Source: Nostoc sp. DedSLP01
GTDB lineage: Bacteria; Cyanobacteriota; Cyanobacteriia; Cyanobacteriales; Nostocaceae
Length of the DNA: 64,000 nucleotides
Reading direction: 5' to 3'
Assembly (NCBI GenBank): GCA_034530875.2
Contig: JAVRCJ020000010.1
Location: 1 to 64,000 of the forward strand
In this document: one piece after another, positions 2,380 to 9,480 of the stretch
How the letters are laid out: every line of letters starts with the position of its first letter
How positions within the stretch are numbered: the first letter of the stretch is position 1
Made by a program: the position numbers and the translations under genes
The notes under the pieces: generated by a model
Told to the model about the DNA's origin: nothing
Database searches by the model: none
Seen by the model: only the letters and a program-made list of their open reading frames with translations

Positions 2380-3816
2380 TTACGCTGGTTTCCAAGTACC
2401 GTGGAAAGTGTGAGGAATGACGCTGGGTAATCCTAGTTTACAAACTGGTTCTGCATCTAAGCGATCGCTATCAAATATCCAAACTTCACTTTGATCGGAA
2501 TTACCATCATAAACTACAACTAAAATCCAACCTTGTTTGGGATTTTGATTATCTTGGGCGTAGATGGGTTCTGAGGTATAAATATTTTCTCCTAAGTCTA
2601 CTTCAGTAAGGGTTTCAGTTTTGTAATCAAAACGAGCGATCGCACTAAACCATTCTTTACCTGAATTCATTCTTTTTGGCAGCAATGCTACATAAGTATA
2701 ACGCCAAGGTTGTGCAACTTGCGATTTTGGCACTACAGGAAACTCACAAACGCGGTTGATAACTTCGTGGGTTGCTGTTAGTTTGGCAGTTTGAGGATTG
2801 AGATGCACTTGCCATAATGTTCCATGAGAATCTGTGTGCGTTTCACCAGTTGCAAATTCTCTGAGATATTCATTACTTTGTTGAAAATCTGAATATCGCA
2901 CCACATCCAAAATCACCGAACCGTCTTGATTTTCACAAGCATTGCCAAAATGCCATTGAAACCAAGGATCGGTTTCGCCACGACTCACTAAAGATAAGTT
3001 TTCCCTGTCAAAAATTAATACCTGAGTTCCTAACTTCGGTTCCCATAATAAAGAGTGACTAAAAGTAGTTAAACCAAGCATAAATTGCAGCATTTTCATC
3101 CGCATCGGTGGCATGAAAAACACCAAGTATCTTTGAGTTAAAACAAAATCATGTATTATTGAATAGCGATCTAATTTGAAAGCTGATTTTTGAATAATTT
3201 TGCCAGAGGTATCGCTTTTATAGAGATTCAGTTGTATAGAACTTCCTAAACTGATGCCAAAATTAAAAATTTCGCCTGTGTTTGGATCGCGTTTGTAATG
3301 AGCAGAATAGGGTAATCCATTATCCAAACCACCCAAATCATCTAATCCCTTTGTTTCTAGAGTTTGCAAATCAAGGGCATAAGGTTGAGTTGCTTCCCAC
3401 AAAGCCAACAGTTTATCTGGTAAAGCCAAGACTGAAGTATTAGCTGCATTCTTAATTTGCTGATTCCACCGCTTCCAAATCGGCCCCGGTGCGTGCATAC
3501 CATAAACAGCATAAAGGAATTTATCTGCTTGACTTTCAGCTTGATATTCTGCTGTTTGCACGTAGCGATAAACTCCGGTCACTCCTGCATCTGTGAAGTG
3601 GACGCTGAGAATTGCGCCATCTCCATCAAACCAGTGTCCCACGCGTACACCACCGCGTTCTAGCCGCGCGGGGCCATTGCGGTAAAGCGTACCACGCAAG
3701 CTATCTGGGACTTTACCGGAGAGAATTGGCAATTGGGTTGGGGGAAATTCTGTTGCTGGTTTAGCGATCGCACCTGCCCAAGCTCTTTTGTTTGACTTTT
3801 GAGTAATAGTTTGCAT
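2380..3816 (-). CDS. Carotenoid cleavage dioxygenase (RPE65 family)
   Basis: LYRNGP, HWFDGDG, SAHYK, IHDF, QWHFGN, PHTFHG: four His ligands. Confidence 0.93.
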   Translation of the reverse strand: MQTITQKSNKRAWAGAIAKPATEFPPTQLPILSGKVPDSLRGTLYRNGPARLERGGVRVGHWFDGDGAILSVHFTDAGVTGVYRYVQTAEYQAESQADKFLYAVYGMHAPGPIWKRWNQQIKNAANTSVLALPDKLLALWEATQPYALDLQTLETKGLDDLGGLDNGLPYSAHYKRDPNTGEIFNFGISLGSSIQLNLYKSDTSGKIIQKSAFKLDRYSIIHDFVLTQRYLVFFMPPMRMKMLQFMLGLTTFSHSLLWEPKLGTQVLIFDRENLSLVSRGETDPWFQWHFGNACENQDGSVILDVVRYSDFQQSNEYLREFATGETHTDSHGTLWQVHLNPQTAKLTATHEVINRVCEFPVVPKSQVAQPWRYTYVALLPKRMNSGKEWFSAIARFDYKTETLTEVDLGENIYTSEPIYAQDNQNPKQGWILVVVYDGNSDQSEVWIFDSDRLDAEPVCKLGLPSVIPHTFHGTWKPA

Positions 3817-3964
3817 ATTAAATTAGTCTCTAATAAATTATTAATCTACACAACTGTATTTTACATTTTCATCATGAATTAGTTGTATATTAGTGCGTCA
3901 GTCCAATGCCGTAACTCTTCCTACTGGCTGACTCCTGAATTCACCAATTTTAACTCCTGCTATA

Positions 3965-3980
3965 TATGAGCTAGCTCATA
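3965..3980. promoter_or_regulatory. Perfect 16-bp palindrome, candidate operator
   Basis: TATGAGCTAGCTCATA in the divergent intergenic region between the dioxygenase and the globin. Confidence 0.35.
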
Positions 3981-4042
3981 GTAACTGCTAGAAATAAACA
4001 GTAAATTGAAATCAATCAAGATTCTAAGTGGTTGAAAAAACT

Positions 4043-4501
4043 ATGATTAGCCAAAAAACAATAGATATCGTTAAAGCTACAGCGCCTATTTTAAAAAAAA
4101 GCGGTCAGCAAATCACAAATCGGATGTATGAAATTATGTTTCAAAATCATCCAGAAATCAAAAGACAATTTGATATGTCTGCTCAAGCAGATGGCTCTCA
4201 GCCTGCAAGATTAGCGACAGCAGTTTATAGTTATGCTAACCAAATTGATAACTTACCTGCTTTAAAATCAATGGTAGAAAAAATTGCCCATCGCCACGTG
4301 CAGACTCATGTTACACCAGAACAATATCCGATTGTTGGAGAAAGTTTATTGCACGCAATGAAAGATGTTTTAGGAGAAGCCGCTACAGAAGAAGTGATGG
4401 CAGCTTGGACTGAAGCTTATCAGGCATTAGCTGAGGTTTTTATTAATAGAGAACATGACATATATCTAGAAGATAAAAAACAACAATTTGTCTATTCCTA
4501 A
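4043..4501 (+). CDS. Single-domain globin (Vitreoscilla Hb / flavohaemoglobin globin-domain type)
   Basis: MISQKTIDIVKATAP, KIAHRHV, PEQYPIVGESLL, AWTEAY; no reductase domain. Confidence 0.92.
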   Translation: MISQKTIDIVKATAPILKKSGQQITNRMYEIMFQNHPEIKRQFDMSAQADGSQPARLATAVYSYANQIDNLPALKSMVEKIAHRHVQTHVTPEQYPIVGESLLHAMKDVLGEAATEEVMAAWTEAYQALAEVFINREHDIYLEDKKQQFVYS

Positions 4502-4566
4502 CAAAAACTTAAGCGTTGCAGAATACTAATAACTTCAAAAGCTCAAACTCTTGGTAGCTTAGGCAC
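4498..4566 (-). pseudogene. hicA: Truncated hicA toxin remnant
   Basis: GTG overlapping the hicB 3' end reads MPKLPRV*AFEVISILQRLSFC*: HicA-like N-terminus with an internal TGA. Confidence 0.7.
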
Positions 4567-4798
4567 TGGTTACTTCAAATGTAGTTAGCAAACAACGATA
4601 TGCTGTCTCAGAAAGTGGGAATTCTTCTAAATAAAGTTCTGTTGCTTCCCGTAAATTAGCAATAGCTTCTTCTATTCTCTCTCCTTGGCTAGCGGTTCCC
4701 ACCTCTGGACATTCAGCTACATAAACATCTTCTTCCCAATACAGAATTGCTGTAAAGGTACGAGTTTTTGTATCCTTAGCCTGTTGTAATGAACTCAT
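4559..4798 (-). CDS. hicB: HicB family antitoxin
   Basis: YVAECPEVGTASQGERIEEAIANLREATELYLE. Confidence 0.9.
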   Translation of the reverse strand: MSSLQQAKDTKTRTFTAILYWEEDVYVAECPEVGTASQGERIEEAIANLREATELYLEEFPLSETAYRCLLTTFEVTSA

Positions 4799-4839: not shown

Positions 4840-7338
4840 TTAATCATTTGGAGGCAACAACATCCGCGCCTCAATAGCTTCCCAGGTTTGGGGCGACACC
4901 CGCACTGCTGCTTGTTTGCACTGGATAATGAGATGATTCGCGTAGAGATAATTTTCTAATGCTTTTATTTGTCCCTCAGATAAATCGATCATTTCTGGGG
5001 TGAGATGGAAAGCTTTGAGTAAGGTTTGTTGCACGTCTTCAGCAAATACCCGACGCACTTTCCTTGATTGTTTATCATCAGGAATTGTAGCTTTGAGTGC
5101 CTCTAGTTGGGCAATCAGCATAGTAAAGTTGACGTTATTGAAGATTTCTGATTTTTTTAGTTGACTAGTATTTTTGATAGTGTTGGTGATGGCAATGGCA
5201 TCGGCGTTGGCGATAGCGTTGGCGAAGTCGATGGCCTTGGCTATGGCGTTGGCGTTAACGATGACATTGGCGCTAGCATTGGCTATGGCGTTAGCGTAGG
5301 TTTTGGTGCTGGCGATGACATAGGCGTTGGTGTCGGCGTTGGTGTAGGCGCTAGCGATGGCTTTGGCGATGACGATGGCGTTGGTGTAGGCTCTGGTGAT
5401 TGCAGATGCACGTTTACGTACAGGTTTCCAATTACCACATGATCCAACTGTTACCTTTTCTGCCCAGTTTAATAAAGCCTGTAACTTAGGGGTACTAATG
5501 TATTTTTGCGCTTCCTTTTCCATCAACAACAGCAAATCATCTGCACCACCGCGCATTAATCCAGCTACTAGCAAAAAGACCTCTTTCCAGCGTTCATCTA
5601 CAAAATGTTCAGTAACTAACTTATTAACTTGGTGATGGTCATTTATATATTGTGCTGTTAAATATTCCTGTAGTGTCAAATGAGAAAATGAGTAGATATT
5701 CCTTGCTCGTTCTACTAAAATTCCCTGTTGAATAGCTATAGCATCTAAAACTGCCTCAGCGTCTAAATTTTTAGGTGCATTATCGTTATTATGCAGAGAG
5801 TCTTTAATTTGACTTACAAGTTCTTGGTGAGATAAAAATAACCGTTTTGATTTAAAGCTGTGATATGCAATCTCAGCCAGCATAATTTTCTCTACATCGA
5901 TGCCAAGCTGACGATAAATTGGTTTTGTTTGAATGCGTTTTTCAGCAGCCCATTTTTCTAATAAAATATCTAAAGCTTTACTGTAAAGCGTAGCTCGGTT
6001 TTTAGGCAAATCTTGAGATCCGTCATACACTAAACAAAGAAAAGTTAGCAACACAGGAGTTCTAGCTAATTCTTTAGTTGATTCTTGGTTTTTGATTAAC
6101 TCCCAGCACTTGTTTGCGGTTCCTACTCTTTTATCAACCTCTGAAGAAAACCAGTTTTGAATAAACTGCTGAATTTGAGCATCATCAAAATCGGCGATCG
6201 CAATTTCCATCAAATTTCTAAACTGCGATCGATAAGCAGCAGTCCGGCAAGAAATAATAAATCTATTTTTTTTATATTTATCGACGAAGAGTTGAATTTC
6301 GCTAATTACAAAATCTGTATTTTCCGTTGGTACTTCATCTAAACTATCCAACAAAATTATTAACTTGCCTTGTTCTAATGCTTTAGTGGTAAATTCTTCA
6401 GAGAATGGTAGCTGAGATGATCTGAATGTTTGTCTAATTACTTCTTCAATATTGATTTTGCTTTCAGTCAATAGTTTTAATTCAATAAAAACCGGAATAC
6501 ATTCATGTTGCAATTCACCAGATTTACCCTTGAGTGCTTCTAGTCCTACCTTCCGCAAAAATGTAGATTTACCAGCACCTGGTGCGCCGAGTACCATCAA
6601 ATATTGCTCCTCATTGGCAACTTTAATTCCCTCTTGTTTCTCAACATCTTTACGGTGGAATCTGCTGTTTATAACTTCACTTGAAATTTTTTGTAAGTCT
6701 TCATTTGATTCAAATTGCCAGCACCAAATATCACTTTCCTGCAAACATTGCACAGCCGTGTAAATTGAATCTAAATCTACAGGCTGCTGCATTCCCAATA
6801 TTTGCAACTTGTTATGTTGCCTGTGGTAGTTAATAATATACTGCTCAGATGCTTGATAAATTAATTTTTTTGTTTCCTCATCTATAGGGCGGTCAAGTGT
6901 GTTTATATAAATATCAACAAAATTTTTCACTGCTGTATCTGGTGCAACTTCCGGCAGTGCAATCAACCGATCTAAAGTCACATGGTTAACTCCAGACAGT
7001 GATAATGAGCGCAAAATATCATCAGCCGTACCTTCGACAACCACAACGCGGCTGAGTTCACCTCCAATAGGTTTTAAAGAAAGTTGCTGGAGTTCTTGAA
7101 TAGTATCACCCAGCATTTCGGCAAGTTGGCTTTTGCGCTGTTCAATTAATGCCTGTCGATAAGCCTCAGATGATGTAAACTGTTGAGGTTTCAGCGATGA
7201 ATTGTTTGCGTTTAATCTAATTTGATTTTCGTCTCCCAAACTCATAATTGCTCGAATTACCTCATTTCCCTTCGCACTCATCAAAACTTCTTGAAGCAGA
7301 GGGTCAATTTTGGCAATTTGGCTTTCGTTAAGTTTCAT
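4840..7338 (-). CDS. NACHT (STAND) NTPase with N-terminal propeptide-like domain, (A-x)n repeat and NCH2-like C-terminus
   Basis: Walker A GAPGAGKST, Walker B LLDSLDEV, ISCR, TPVLL, FSHLTLQEY; C-terminal ENYLYANHLIIQCKQAAVRVS. Confidence 0.9.
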   Translation of the reverse strand: MKLNESQIAKIDPLLQEVLMSAKGNEVIRAIMSLGDENQIRLNANNSSLKPQQFTSSEAYRQALIEQRKSQLAEMLGDTIQELQQLSLKPIGGELSRVVVVEGTADDILRSLSLSGVNHVTLDRLIALPEVAPDTAVKNFVDIYINTLDRPIDEETKKLIYQASEQYIINYHRQHNKLQILGMQQPVDLDSIYTAVQCLQESDIWCWQFESNEDLQKISSEVINSRFHRKDVEKQEGIKVANEEQYLMVLGAPGAGKSTFLRKVGLEALKGKSGELQHECIPVFIELKLLTESKINIEEVIRQTFRSSQLPFSEEFTTKALEQGKLIILLDSLDEVPTENTDFVISEIQLFVDKYKKNRFIISCRTAAYRSQFRNLMEIAIADFDDAQIQQFIQNWFSSEVDKRVGTANKCWELIKNQESTKELARTPVLLTFLCLVYDGSQDLPKNRATLYSKALDILLEKWAAEKRIQTKPIYRQLGIDVEKIMLAEIAYHSFKSKRLFLSHQELVSQIKDSLHNNDNAPKNLDAEAVLDAIAIQQGILVERARNIYSFSHLTLQEYLTAQYINDHHQVNKLVTEHFVDERWKEVFLLVAGLMRGGADDLLLLMEKEAQKYISTPKLQALLNWAEKVTVGSCGNWKPVRKRASAITRAYTNAIVIAKAIASAYTNADTNAYVIASTKTYANAIANASANVIVNANAIAKAIDFANAIANADAIAITNTIKNTSQLKKSEIFNNVNFTMLIAQLEALKATIPDDKQSRKVRRVFAEDVQQTLLKAFHLTPEMIDLSEGQIKALENYLYANHLIIQCKQAAVRVSPQTWEAIEARMLLPPND
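5183..5403 (-). repeat. Degenerate 6-nt coding repeat (GCC/ACC/GTC + NNC) encoding an (A/T/V-x)n tract
   Basis: AITRAYTNAIVIAKAIASAYTNAD...ANAIANADAIAITN; GC-rich relative to the rest of the gene. Confidence 0.85.
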
Positions 7339-8546
7339 AGGGCTGCGATTACCTGAATTAAACCTTTACCTTGGCGTTCCTTGTCGTGTCCCAAATCTTT
7401 ACAACTTGTCAGGAGTCCGTCAACTAAATCCAATACCGAAATTTGCTTATTATACTTCTCTAAGATTAACGCTGCTACACCAGAAACGATGGGAGTTGCC
7501 ATTGAAGTTCCCTCCCAAGCTTCATAGCCACCACCTTGAACTGATGAATAAACGCCTTGTCCAGGCGCAACCAAATAAGGAACATCATAAGAATGATTAT
7601 TAACTAATATTCTGCCACTGCCGCTAAAACTGGCAATTTTACTATCAAAGTTTGTTGCACCTACTGAAACTGAACTCCGACAGTTTGCTGGTGTTCTTGT
7701 ATTGTTACGCCCATCGTTACCAACAGCACAAACAGGCAGGATACCAACTGCCAATAAAGTATCAATAACATCGCTCATTTCATGAGCATACGTAGGAAGA
7801 CCTGCTGAAATGTTAACAATATTCACGTCTGGTCGAAGTGCTAGCCACTCCAGCCACATTACAAAATCTGATAATTTGCCAGTACCTTTTGGGATAAGTA
7901 CGCCATCAATCAGTTTAGTTTCTGGTGCAACCCCAACTTGCTGACCACAAATCAGTCCAGCTACGTGAGTACCATGACCATCCGTATCCTGGGAAACTGT
8001 TAACTGGATTTGCTTACTTCTATCATTAAAACTATAAGATTCAGTTACCTTACCTTGCAATTCTCGGTGTGTTGAATCGATACCTGTGTCAAGGACAGCA
8101 ATGGTAATACTTTTACCAGTGCCCGCAAACCCATTTTGACGTGCTATGTTGAGAGCGATCGCATCCAAATGCCACAATTCATCTTCGGTAAGTTCATCTT
8201 TGGTATCTGTATTTCTTTGTTGTGGCTGAATTAACTCAATCGGCCGATCCCGCAAAATTAAAGCATTAGGCAACTCTTCACGAATTCTGACCGCCTCTTC
8301 ATCCGGCATTTCTACAACACTTGCACCAGTAATACCTGAGTAATCTGGATACTTTGTTACTTCGCTTGTGTCGTTTTGTGCATCTTCTAACCACTGTTCA
8401 ATTTCTTGGTATACTTGGTTTTCCTGCCAAAAATTTACAACTTCTGCAACTTGCGCCTTACGACTTTCGGGTGTAAATTTTTTAGATTCAAGTTTTAGCG
8501 ATCGCGCTGCTGATGTTGCTTTAGGTCGAATAATATAAACGCTCAT
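7335..8546 (-). CDS. S8 (subtilisin-like) serine protease, no signal peptide
   Basis: VLDTG, GHGTHVAG, AVGNDG, GTSMATP; GAGGGG before ATG 8546; ATGA overlap with the NACHT gene. Confidence 0.93.
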   Translation of the reverse strand: MSVYIIRPKATSAARSLKLESKKFTPESRKAQVAEVVNFWQENQVYQEIEQWLEDAQNDTSEVTKYPDYSGITGASVVEMPDEEAVRIREELPNALILRDRPIELIQPQQRNTDTKDELTEDELWHLDAIALNIARQNGFAGTGKSITIAVLDTGIDSTHRELQGKVTESYSFNDRSKQIQLTVSQDTDGHGTHVAGLICGQQVGVAPETKLIDGVLIPKGTGKLSDFVMWLEWLALRPDVNIVNISAGLPTYAHEMSDVIDTLLAVGILPVCAVGNDGRNNTRTPANCRSSVSVGATNFDSKIASFSGSGRILVNNHSYDVPYLVAPGQGVYSSVQGGGYEAWEGTSMATPIVSGVAALILEKYNKQISVLDLVDGLLTSCKDLGHDKERQGKGLIQVIAAL

Positions 8547-8724: not shown

Positions 8725-9480
8725 ATGACAACTACACCAACCTTCAATTCTTGGATTAACTGTCCCCAACCAAATCCTCAAGCAAACTTGCGTTTATTCT
8801 GCTTTCCTTACGCTGGTGGTAGCTCTATAATTTTTCGTACATGGGCTAATAGCCTACCTCGCAATGTCGAAGTCTGTGCTGTGGAATATCCTGGACGGGG
8901 AAAACAGATGAAGTTAGCACCTTACACGCGGTTAGAACCTCTTGTAAATGCGATCGCTCAATCTCTACTACCATATTTAGACAAACCATTCGCCTTCTTT
9001 GGGCACAGTATGGGTGCATTAGTTAGCTTCGAGTTAACTCGTCTACTGCGCTTAGAGTATAATATTGAGCCGTTTCACCTTTTCATATCTGCTCGTCGCG
9101 CCCCACAACTCCCGCCCATAAAACCACCTATCCACGTCTTACCAGACGCAGAGTTACTCGAAGAACTACGCACTCTCAACGGTACACCCAAAGCAGTACT
9201 AGAAAATCCAGAACTAATGCAAATCTTCCTCCCAGTTTTACGGGCAGATTTTGCAGTTCTGGAAACTTATATTTACACTCCACAACAGCCCCTAGACTCT
9301 GCCATTACTATATTTGGTGGTTGGCAAGACAAAGAAGTTAGCCATGAGGCTCTGCAAGCATGGCGAGAACAAGCAAGGTCTATCTCTTTACAAATGTTTG
9401 AGGGCGACCACTTTTTTATACACTCTCATCAAGATTCATTACTTAAACTTATATCTCAAGAATTGGGAGTTAGGAGTTAG
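8725..9480 (+). CDS. Type II thioesterase
   Basis: LFCFPYAGG, FFGHSMG, LRADF, GDHFF. Confidence 0.92.
   Translation: MTTTPTFNSWINCPQPNPQANLRLFCFPYAGGSSIIFRTWANSLPRNVEVCAVEYPGRGKQMKLAPYTRLEPLVNAIAQSLLPYLDKPFAFFGHSMGALVSFELTRLLRLEYNIEPFHLFISARRAPQLPPIKPPIHVLPDAELLEELRTLNGTPKAVLENPELMQIFLPVLRADFAVLETYIYTPQQPLDSAITIFGGWQDKEVSHEALQAWREQARSISLQMFEGDHFFIHSHQDSLLKLISQELGVRS

Follow-up and report, generated by a model that had tools for sequence, protein, structure and literature searches.

Why should a NACHT nucleoside triphosphatase (NTPase) protein of a cyanobacterium begin with a domain that looks like the propeptide of a protease, and why should such a protease be encoded directly in front of it? 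The question is raised by a two-gene cassette of 3.7 kb in the window analyzed here, which is a stretch of 64,000 nt from Nostoc sp. DedSLP01 (contig JAVRCJ020000010.1, positions 1 to 64,000). Both genes lie on the minus strand, with the S8 protease gene (8546-7335) followed by the NACHT gene (7338-4840), and the TGA of the former overlaps the ATG of the latter as ATGA. Residues 1 to 130 of the NACHT protein are predicted to form a conserved domain that folds like a subtilase propeptide, and in the best reading of the models this domain would serve as a decoy prodomain that holds the neighboring protease inactive. The features to which the argument refers are as follows.

4840..7338, minus strand: the whole fused gene (832 aa; domain 1-130, NACHT, and NCH2), with a 4-nt overlap between its start and the stop of the protease gene.
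6949..7338, minus strand: the predicted propeptide-fold domain (NACHT protein aa 1-130).
6949..6972, minus strand: the tail DRLIALPE, which in the predicted complex occupies the cleft of the protease.
7335..8546, minus strand: the S8 subtilase gene (403 aa; ATG at 8546, GAGGGG upstream; PF00082, E=2.7e-42).
8223..8546, minus strand: the propeptide-like N-terminal region of the protease itself (aa 1-108), whose last residues are D100-R-P-I-E-L-I-Q-P108.
6142..6603, minus strand: the NACHT NTPase domain (aa 246-399; PF05729, E=2.2e-13).
5152..5406, minus strand: a hypervariable low-complexity segment (aa 645-729; Ala/Asn/Ile/Tyr-rich), a candidate sensor.
4852..5118, minus strand: NCH2, the NACHT C-terminal helical domain 2 (aa 741-829; PF22727, E=2.3e-16).

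A preliminary description of this DNA had correctly placed the domain at 7338-6949 on the minus strand, as residues 1 to 130 of the 832-aa NACHT-NCH2 protein, and had claimed an I9-like propeptide fold for it. The claim is borne out by an AlphaFold2 model built from 114 input sequences, which reached a predicted local distance difference test (pLDDT) value of 90 and shows the propeptide topology, with the four-stranded sheet and two helices of the I9 fold, preceded by an N-terminal extension. Along the chain, this extension (1-25) is followed by beta1, a helical insertion carrying a YRQALI motif, a GG turn, a beta-alpha-beta unit, and the tail D123-E130. Among 48,161 solved chains, the best structural match was the Tk-SP prodomain (3afg; VIA Z 10.6, root mean square deviation 2.6, 86 aligned), and the next matches, at Z 6.3-7.8, included CspB, subtilisins BPN' and E, Tk-subtilisin, PCSK9, a "PAM protease" chain, and EpiP; matches with Z <8 alone may reflect a common arrangement, and only the Tk-SP row exceeds 8. 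Each of the top ten chains comes from a protease entry, nine of which are named subtilases, and in each the match covers a region the size of a prodomain; the first unrelated chain ranks below them at Z 6.0. Foldseek, which had been suggested as a check, gave a divided answer: propeptides again led its ranking against the PDB, and none reached E<=0.001, a threshold at which nothing was found among viral models either. A sequence profile searched against the PDB gave the Tk-subtilisin propeptide, in register, as the sole coherent match, but at E=1.2. In the atlas comparison, the neighbors of the domain were the clusters PopD, Inhibitor_I9, and CspB_prodomain, and in a second such comparison I9 was closer to it than PopD was. 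No meaningful match to residues 1 to 130 came from Pfam, NCBIfam, or PADLOC, and PF05922 (Inhibitor_I9) matched neither the domain (E<=1) nor any of 114 family members (E<=0.1), so the domain is filed here by its fold and inferred action and not as a member of PF05922. Purifying selection acts on the domain (dN/dS 0.10-0.43 in 21 pairs of 7 sequences).

If the domain is propeptide-like, is it a second copy of the propeptide of this particular protease, as had been proposed? The two motifs on which that proposal was based, FTSSEAYRQA and FTPESRKAQ, are indeed present in the respective proteins, and both start a long helix in the respective models, but neither alignment method pairs them, and the by-eye likeness to the protease N terminus does not reach significance when just these two sequences are compared (BLASTP, E=2.0; Smith-Waterman score equaled in 209 of 2000 shuffles). 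Profiles brought out somewhat more. When 114 domains were compared with 15 propeptides, the aligned part comprised 34-38 C-terminal columns; hhalign gave E=0.0013 with a probability of 18% over 38 columns when the tail columns of the domain family were included, and E=0.018, a value reached in 3 of 150 column shuffles, when the family was trimmed to the 130 columns of the window domain. The N-terminal region of the neighboring protease scores highest among the ten S8 N-terminal regions of the genome (17.5 versus <=14.7), and the shared piece ends in a tail motif that reads D-R-P-I-E-L-I-Q-P in the protease and D-R-P-I-E-L-I-x-P in the consensus of stand-alone members of the domain family. As worded, then, the notion of a second copy is not supported, the likeness being marginal and confined to the C-terminal half. 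The domain belongs to an older family of stand-alone proteins that is only marginally like the neighbor's propeptide; remote common ancestry of the two is plausible, and a recent duplication is not shown. A more distant pair in another genome (G017, L042:7415-9856, minus strand) consists of a distant S8 protease and, behind it, a stand-alone homologue that is likewise distant (E=6.5e-7); the prodomain of this protease opens with the same extension, KI-S/D-P. This pair resembles both domains weakly (E=0.0046 and 0.016) and is possibly a sister family that keeps a trace of prodomain duplication, a suggestion to be taken only as a lead.

The partner protease has the hallmarks of an active subtilase. 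The catalytic residues D153, H191, and S348 and the oxyanion residue N277 are intact, as judged by motif position, and the catalytic motifs are invariant in all 19 aligned catalytic domains. No hydrophobic signal peptide was found in the protease (N-terminal hydropathy, 0.37), and peak 11-residue hydropathy was <=1.1 in 14 of 15 protease N termini and 1.8 in the remaining one. Its own propeptide-like region (aa 1-108), which is conserved in 15 aligned orthologues, was modeled by AlphaFold2 as a ferredoxin-like fold (pLDDT 82); a fold search with this region placed propeptides among tied matches at Z 5-5.7 and was not discriminating. Identity with IetS, the S8 peptidase that accompanies an AAA ATPase in IetAS, was considered and rejected: NF042956 gave 30 bits against a cut-off of 900, and the PADLOC model, 749 positions long, matched only residues 146-286. 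At one locus (L030:3-1540), the protease and a stand-alone domain are followed by a second protease paralogue, which runs off the contig end and is likely a pseudoprotease, with GLGTFVAG in place of the catalytic-His motif GHGTHVAG.

A predicted complex of the domain with the S8 catalytic domain had been named in advance as a check on the idea, and it came out as a canonical interface. ESMFold2, given the catalytic domain and residues 1 to 143, returned a score of 0.91 versus 0.01 for the best of three controls, with at least 86% of contacts shared between runs and a partner pLDDT of at least 80. Of 157 solved pairs, 116 attained the score mark, as did 2 of 215 mismatched pairs; because propeptide-subtilase complexes have already been solved, the high score may reflect structures known to the model. 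In the modeled pose, the sheet of the domain packs on the surface helices of the protease and its tail enters the active site, so that D123 touches protease residues 224-226 and residues 123-130 touch H191, S247-G249, N277, and S348. A family-specific helix (R61, L64, I65, R68) would make extra contacts at 236-237 and 266-268. The near-invariant residues D123 (97%), R61, G92, and G93 all fall within this interface, and the helix-capping Asp and the C-terminal tail in the cleft, both typical of I9-like inhibitors, are present in the model.

The same model bears on a second proposal of the preliminary description, that the domain recruits the protease on oligomerization in the manner of CARD and caspase. 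On this reading, oligomerized NACHT protein would gather the protease, or displace its propeptide, and thereby activate it. The domain does bind the protease in the model, it occupies the slot in which bacterial NACHT proteins are described as carrying adaptors (bioRxiv 2022.07.19.500537), and it also occurs together with TIR and EAD7-like adaptors. Yet the modeled pose is at the site of a zymogen propeptide and fills the active site, which points to block rather than activation, and about half of the domain proteins (119/228) stand alone, so that those encoded behind the same protease have nothing to recruit it to. Subtilases are, moreover, active without clustering. Activation by recruitment is accordingly very unlikely. 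The model instead favors the decoy prodomain, and the domain is probably a second propeptide, encoded in trans, by which the matured protease is inhibited.

The tail of the domain can be read in the register of known propeptides, in which the helix-capping Asp precedes the site of cleavage by seven residues and P4 is hydrophobic (PMC6993865). By analogy, D123 would be P7, the helix cap, with I126 at P4 and P129 at P1. In most stand-alone members P1 is Ile or Val and P2' is Pro (62/93), and NACHT-fused members have Pro at P1 in 76 of 95 cases and at P1' in 9 of 95. Among 50%-identity representatives, Pro at P1 or P1' is found in 14 of 20 NACHT-fused versus 17 of 91 stand-alone members, a count from which 22 rows without the motif and 10 that were too short are excluded. 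Proline at P1 or P1' hinders cleavage. The last residue of a propeptide is also reported to affect its potency (PMC10580911).

How widespread is the domain, and is it always tied to a NACHT protein? A profile search recovered 344 representatives at E<=0.001 among 1.84 billion, forming a family without a Pfam match. Of 146 newly listed proteins, 104 have a length of 118-160 aa, 8 are shorter, and 34 are longer; by Pfam, 19 of the longer proteins carry NACHT (one of these with HEAT repeats and not NCH2) and 2 carry TIR, one of which ends in an EAD7-like stretch that falls under the Pfam cut-off. In the search for longer proteins, NACHT was present in 75 of 79 matches, the named ones of which are all cyanobacterial. 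Overall, 228 domain-bearing proteins comprise 119 stand-alone, 100 NACHT-fused, and 9 otherwise fused proteins, the stand-alone class being called by length so that some may be fragments; the stand-alone and alternatively fused homologues for which a search had been suggested thus both exist. In a FastTree tree of 156 rows, from which 72 redundant or partial rows were omitted and in which many forks remain open, a single group with weak support contains 37 of the 39 NACHT fusions along with 7 domain-only rows, and 7 other fusions are scattered over the tree. Four of the fusions look independent: P0101 (TIR plus the EAD7-like stretch), P0143 (TIR), P0159, which carries a weak death-like domain (bDLD1, E=0.025), and P0103 (L026:5998-7803), in which the domain is joined to a 470-aa region of unknown nature. 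P0103 is the only one seen behind the protease, the neighborhoods of the TIR fusions not having been checked. A further protein of 355 aa (P0268) joins the protease's own propeptide to the middle part of the NACHT domain, with Walker A missing, and is apparently a deletion remnant of the cassette. Viral contigs gave 39 and 33 pattern matches, none of which was confirmed as a relative, and tblastn with one stand-alone member found no relatives in plasmids or phages.

These architectures invite a simpler explanation, in which inhibition is constitutive, as it likely is in the stand-alone forms, and the NACHT gene is merely fused to an indispensable antidote over which it has no control. Stand-alone forms evidently need no NACHT, the domain is also fused to unrelated partners, and several domain-only proteins nest in the NACHT clade, as though the NACHT part could be lost, although some of these are perhaps fragments. 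Against this, the NACHT fusion is kept in records from Nostocales, Aphanothece, Crocosphaera, and Symploca with its Walker motifs intact, its C-terminal segment is diversifying, and the NACHT protein has no other recognizable effector by Pfam. A passive fusion therefore seems to us unlikely.

The NACHT module itself has the makeup of a bacterial NACHT protein, with Walker A (GAPGAGKST at 251) and Walker B (LLDSLDEV at 329), an N-terminal effector slot, and a putative C-terminal sensor region. Among 100 fused homologues, 97 carry Walker A and 92 show a pattern of the Walker B type. Among 23 homologues, aa 645-729 have a mean identity of 42%, versus 61-79% in other regions, and one homologue (P0009) that is 92-99% identical over aa 1-600 is 42% identical in this variable segment, within which degenerate tandem repeats lie at 5176-5350. 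The other NACHT proteins of the genome have different N termini and are without the domain, which fits an exchangeable effector slot.

Domain and protease are closely linked, and in other phyla stand-alone members follow a protease of the same subfamily. Of 401 cyanobacterial genomes, 11 gave a match to the domain (12 with a deeper profile), and a profile of the protease propeptide recovered exactly those 11. Both genes have long open frames in 9 of the 11; in G168 the protease is frameshifted ahead of the catalytic Ser and the NACHT protein is truncated, and in G170 both genes are remnants. In the phylum Chloroflexota, to which the Chloroflexaceae record belongs, a stand-alone domain was found in 6 of 401 genomes, each time behind the protease, and all 5 of the 386 genomes in which the protease profile was found also carry the domain. 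A seventh, weak match (G493) was removed as false, lying inside an unrelated protein that we take to be DNA polymerase III alpha. At 24 further loci with a stand-alone alignment, the protease is directly upstream in 17, with spacings from a 10-nt overlap to a 29-nt gap, and is a remnant in 1; of the remaining 6, 3 have too little upstream DNA and 3 no detected protease. Among four related metagenome contigs (L024, L025, L032, and L037), the stand-alone gene has a protease remnant (L025) or no detected protease upstream. In this sample, which covers two phyla and in which kin are not independent, the protease was accompanied by the domain in 16 of 16 genomes, but the domain can survive where the protease is missing. 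Among the cyanobacteria, the distances of protease and domain are correlated. The cassette occupies several different chromosomal sites and is present in one of eight congeners.

The gene order also recalls PopC and PopD, and a third alternative is that the domain restrains export of the protease, or its cutting of a self-substrate, with the NACHT part tying removal of the inhibitor to a physiological cue and not to infection. The domain is encoded directly behind a subtilase that lacks a signal peptide, as a PopD-type partner would be. The atlas cluster named PopD (PF27478, which we take to be the Myxococcus protein) scores 0.93 with the domain (157/256 features, rank 5); this is a lead only, the likeness being by cluster and the atlas having flagged its own family call as uncertain. 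PopC is itself a subtilisin-like protease without a signal peptide, held by PopD (PMC6434023), and popCD shows the same operon order of protease and small partner (PMC4320627). However, presence in so few cyanobacteria and congeners, at varying sites, is unlike a core developmental pathway, and control of this kind appears distinctly unlikely.

We thus lean, if only slightly, toward the reading in which the domain plugs the active site of the protease and the NACHT module releases or exposes the protease on a trigger that is likely related to infection. Its immune character is suggested by the NACHT effector slot, the variable segment, the fusions with HEAT-NACHT, TIR, and TIR plus the EAD7-like stretch, and the patchy presence at different sites. 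In the proposed sequence of events, the protease, having no signal peptide, would mature in the cytoplasm and, once its own propeptide is lost, would be captured by the trans-encoded second propeptide as by a second lock. Proline at P1 or P1' would shield the fused linker from cutting, so that the inhibitor would stay tethered to the NTPase. A change in the NACHT protein, either nucleotide-driven oligomerization after sensing through the variable segment or destruction of the protein, would then set free a broad-specificity protease, which might kill or arrest the cell. A bolder version, which we regard as doubtful, is an inverted inflammasome in which an NLR (NOD-like receptor) protein jails the protease and does not recruit or activate it, the propeptide mimic has been grafted repeatedly onto NACHT and TIR, and sensing or destruction of the jailer frees a subtilisin by which an infected cell of the multicellular cyanobacterium would be killed.

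Several observations weigh against the plug-and-release reading. Interface positions are no more conserved than other positions of the domain (40 versus 90; p=0.26), and the proline shift lies mostly inside one weakly supported clade, so that it does not represent many independent events. The correlation of protease and domain distances was not significant at 10 other loci (321 of 5000 permutations), where again kin are not independent. No conserved substrate or defense neighbor was found among 21 scanned neighbors or 11 extended loci, the surroundings of the examined loci are unlike a defense island, and no curated defense model (PADLOC, NCBIfam) covers the domain or passes its cut-off. Furthermore, the PopC protease of M. 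xanthus is secreted although it has no signal peptide (PMC6434023), so that a cytoplasmic location of the window protease is not proven.

In the window, the cassette is flanked by genes for a carotenoid oxygenase, a globin, and a thioesterase (2380-4501 and 8725-9480), and the thioesterase gene flanks it in several Nostocales loci too. A HicB-like open reading frame of 79 aa (4559-4798, minus strand) begins 41 nt past the NACHT stop (PF15919, E=0.0026, under the cut-off), and no intact toxin partner was seen adjoining it. Counts of promoters and terminators were at chance level. The source genome is 8.57 Mb in size, and the nearest relatives that carry a name are records of Nostoc. At two further loci (L033:686-2062 and L034:43-2250, plus strand), a hemocyanin/prophenoloxidase-like gene (Hemocyanin_M, Hemocyanin_C) lies behind the protease and stand-alone pair, and its product is a possible protease-activated substrate in that lineage.

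How does this arrangement compare with known systems? Eukaryotes are known to have stand-alone inhibitors that resemble propeptides, and PMC6993865 names, within MEROPS I9, peptidase A inhibitor 1 of Pleurotus ostreatus, yeast peptidase B inhibitor, and Arabidopsis propeptide-like inhibitor 1, together with TgMIC5 and Plasmodium SUB1-ProM. With these the Nostoc domain would share the predicted fold, the helix-capping Asp at P7, the hydrophobic P4, and the tail in the cleft, and, like SUB1-ProM, it is encoded beside its subtilase. It differs in being bacterial, in its N-terminal extension, in its fusion to an NLR-type NTPase, and in a long conserved helical insertion with a second predicted contact, and all 114 members are unmatched by PF05922. 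With PopC-PopD it shares a signal-peptide-less subtilisin-like protease and an operon partner that would bind and restrain it until the partner is degraded (PMC6434023, PMC4320627); as described there, PopD blocks secretion in development and is removed by FtsH-D, whereas in Nostoc the part of the partner is taken by the N-terminal domain of a protein with NACHT. Should PopD prove homologous, the family may account for the way in which it restrains PopC.

Bacterial NACHT proteins, which are common in cyanobacteria, have the same order of effector slot, NACHT, and C-terminal sensor (bioRxiv 2022.07.19.500537). The effectors listed there are caspase, trypsin, papain-like, and deSUMOylating peptidases, nucleases, and TIR, and the adaptors are EAD, death-like, and HTH domains; no protease inhibitor or propeptide, such as is proposed for the Nostoc protein, is among the effectors in the main text of that source. 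Fungal S8/NACHT/WD40 NLRs and HET-Q2 likewise couple an S8 protease to a NACHT receptor, HET-Q2 without a signal peptide, but there the protease itself is fused, HET-Q2 is without an I9 domain, and the gasdermin substrate adjoins (PMC8851545), whereas in Nostoc it is the inhibitor-like domain that is fused, the protease has a gene of its own, and the neighborhood has no conserved substrate gene. Term searches of the accessible text of PMC13581612 (including its seven supplements), PMC12642450, and PMC7159879 found no such system, and no description was found in the literature covered, outside which most subscription journals lie.

Overall, the cassette appears to be a real and conserved feature, a variant of NLR-protease coupling drawn from a propeptide-like inhibitor family. 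It defines a widespread bacterial family of putative stand-alone propeptide-like inhibitors paired with one S8 subfamily, and the hypervariable segment provides a way into the question of what is sensed by NACHT-NCH2 proteins. Known NLR-protease circuits fuse the protease or recruit it by adaptors; an inhibitor in the effector slot, with activation by release, would, if true, be a third wiring.

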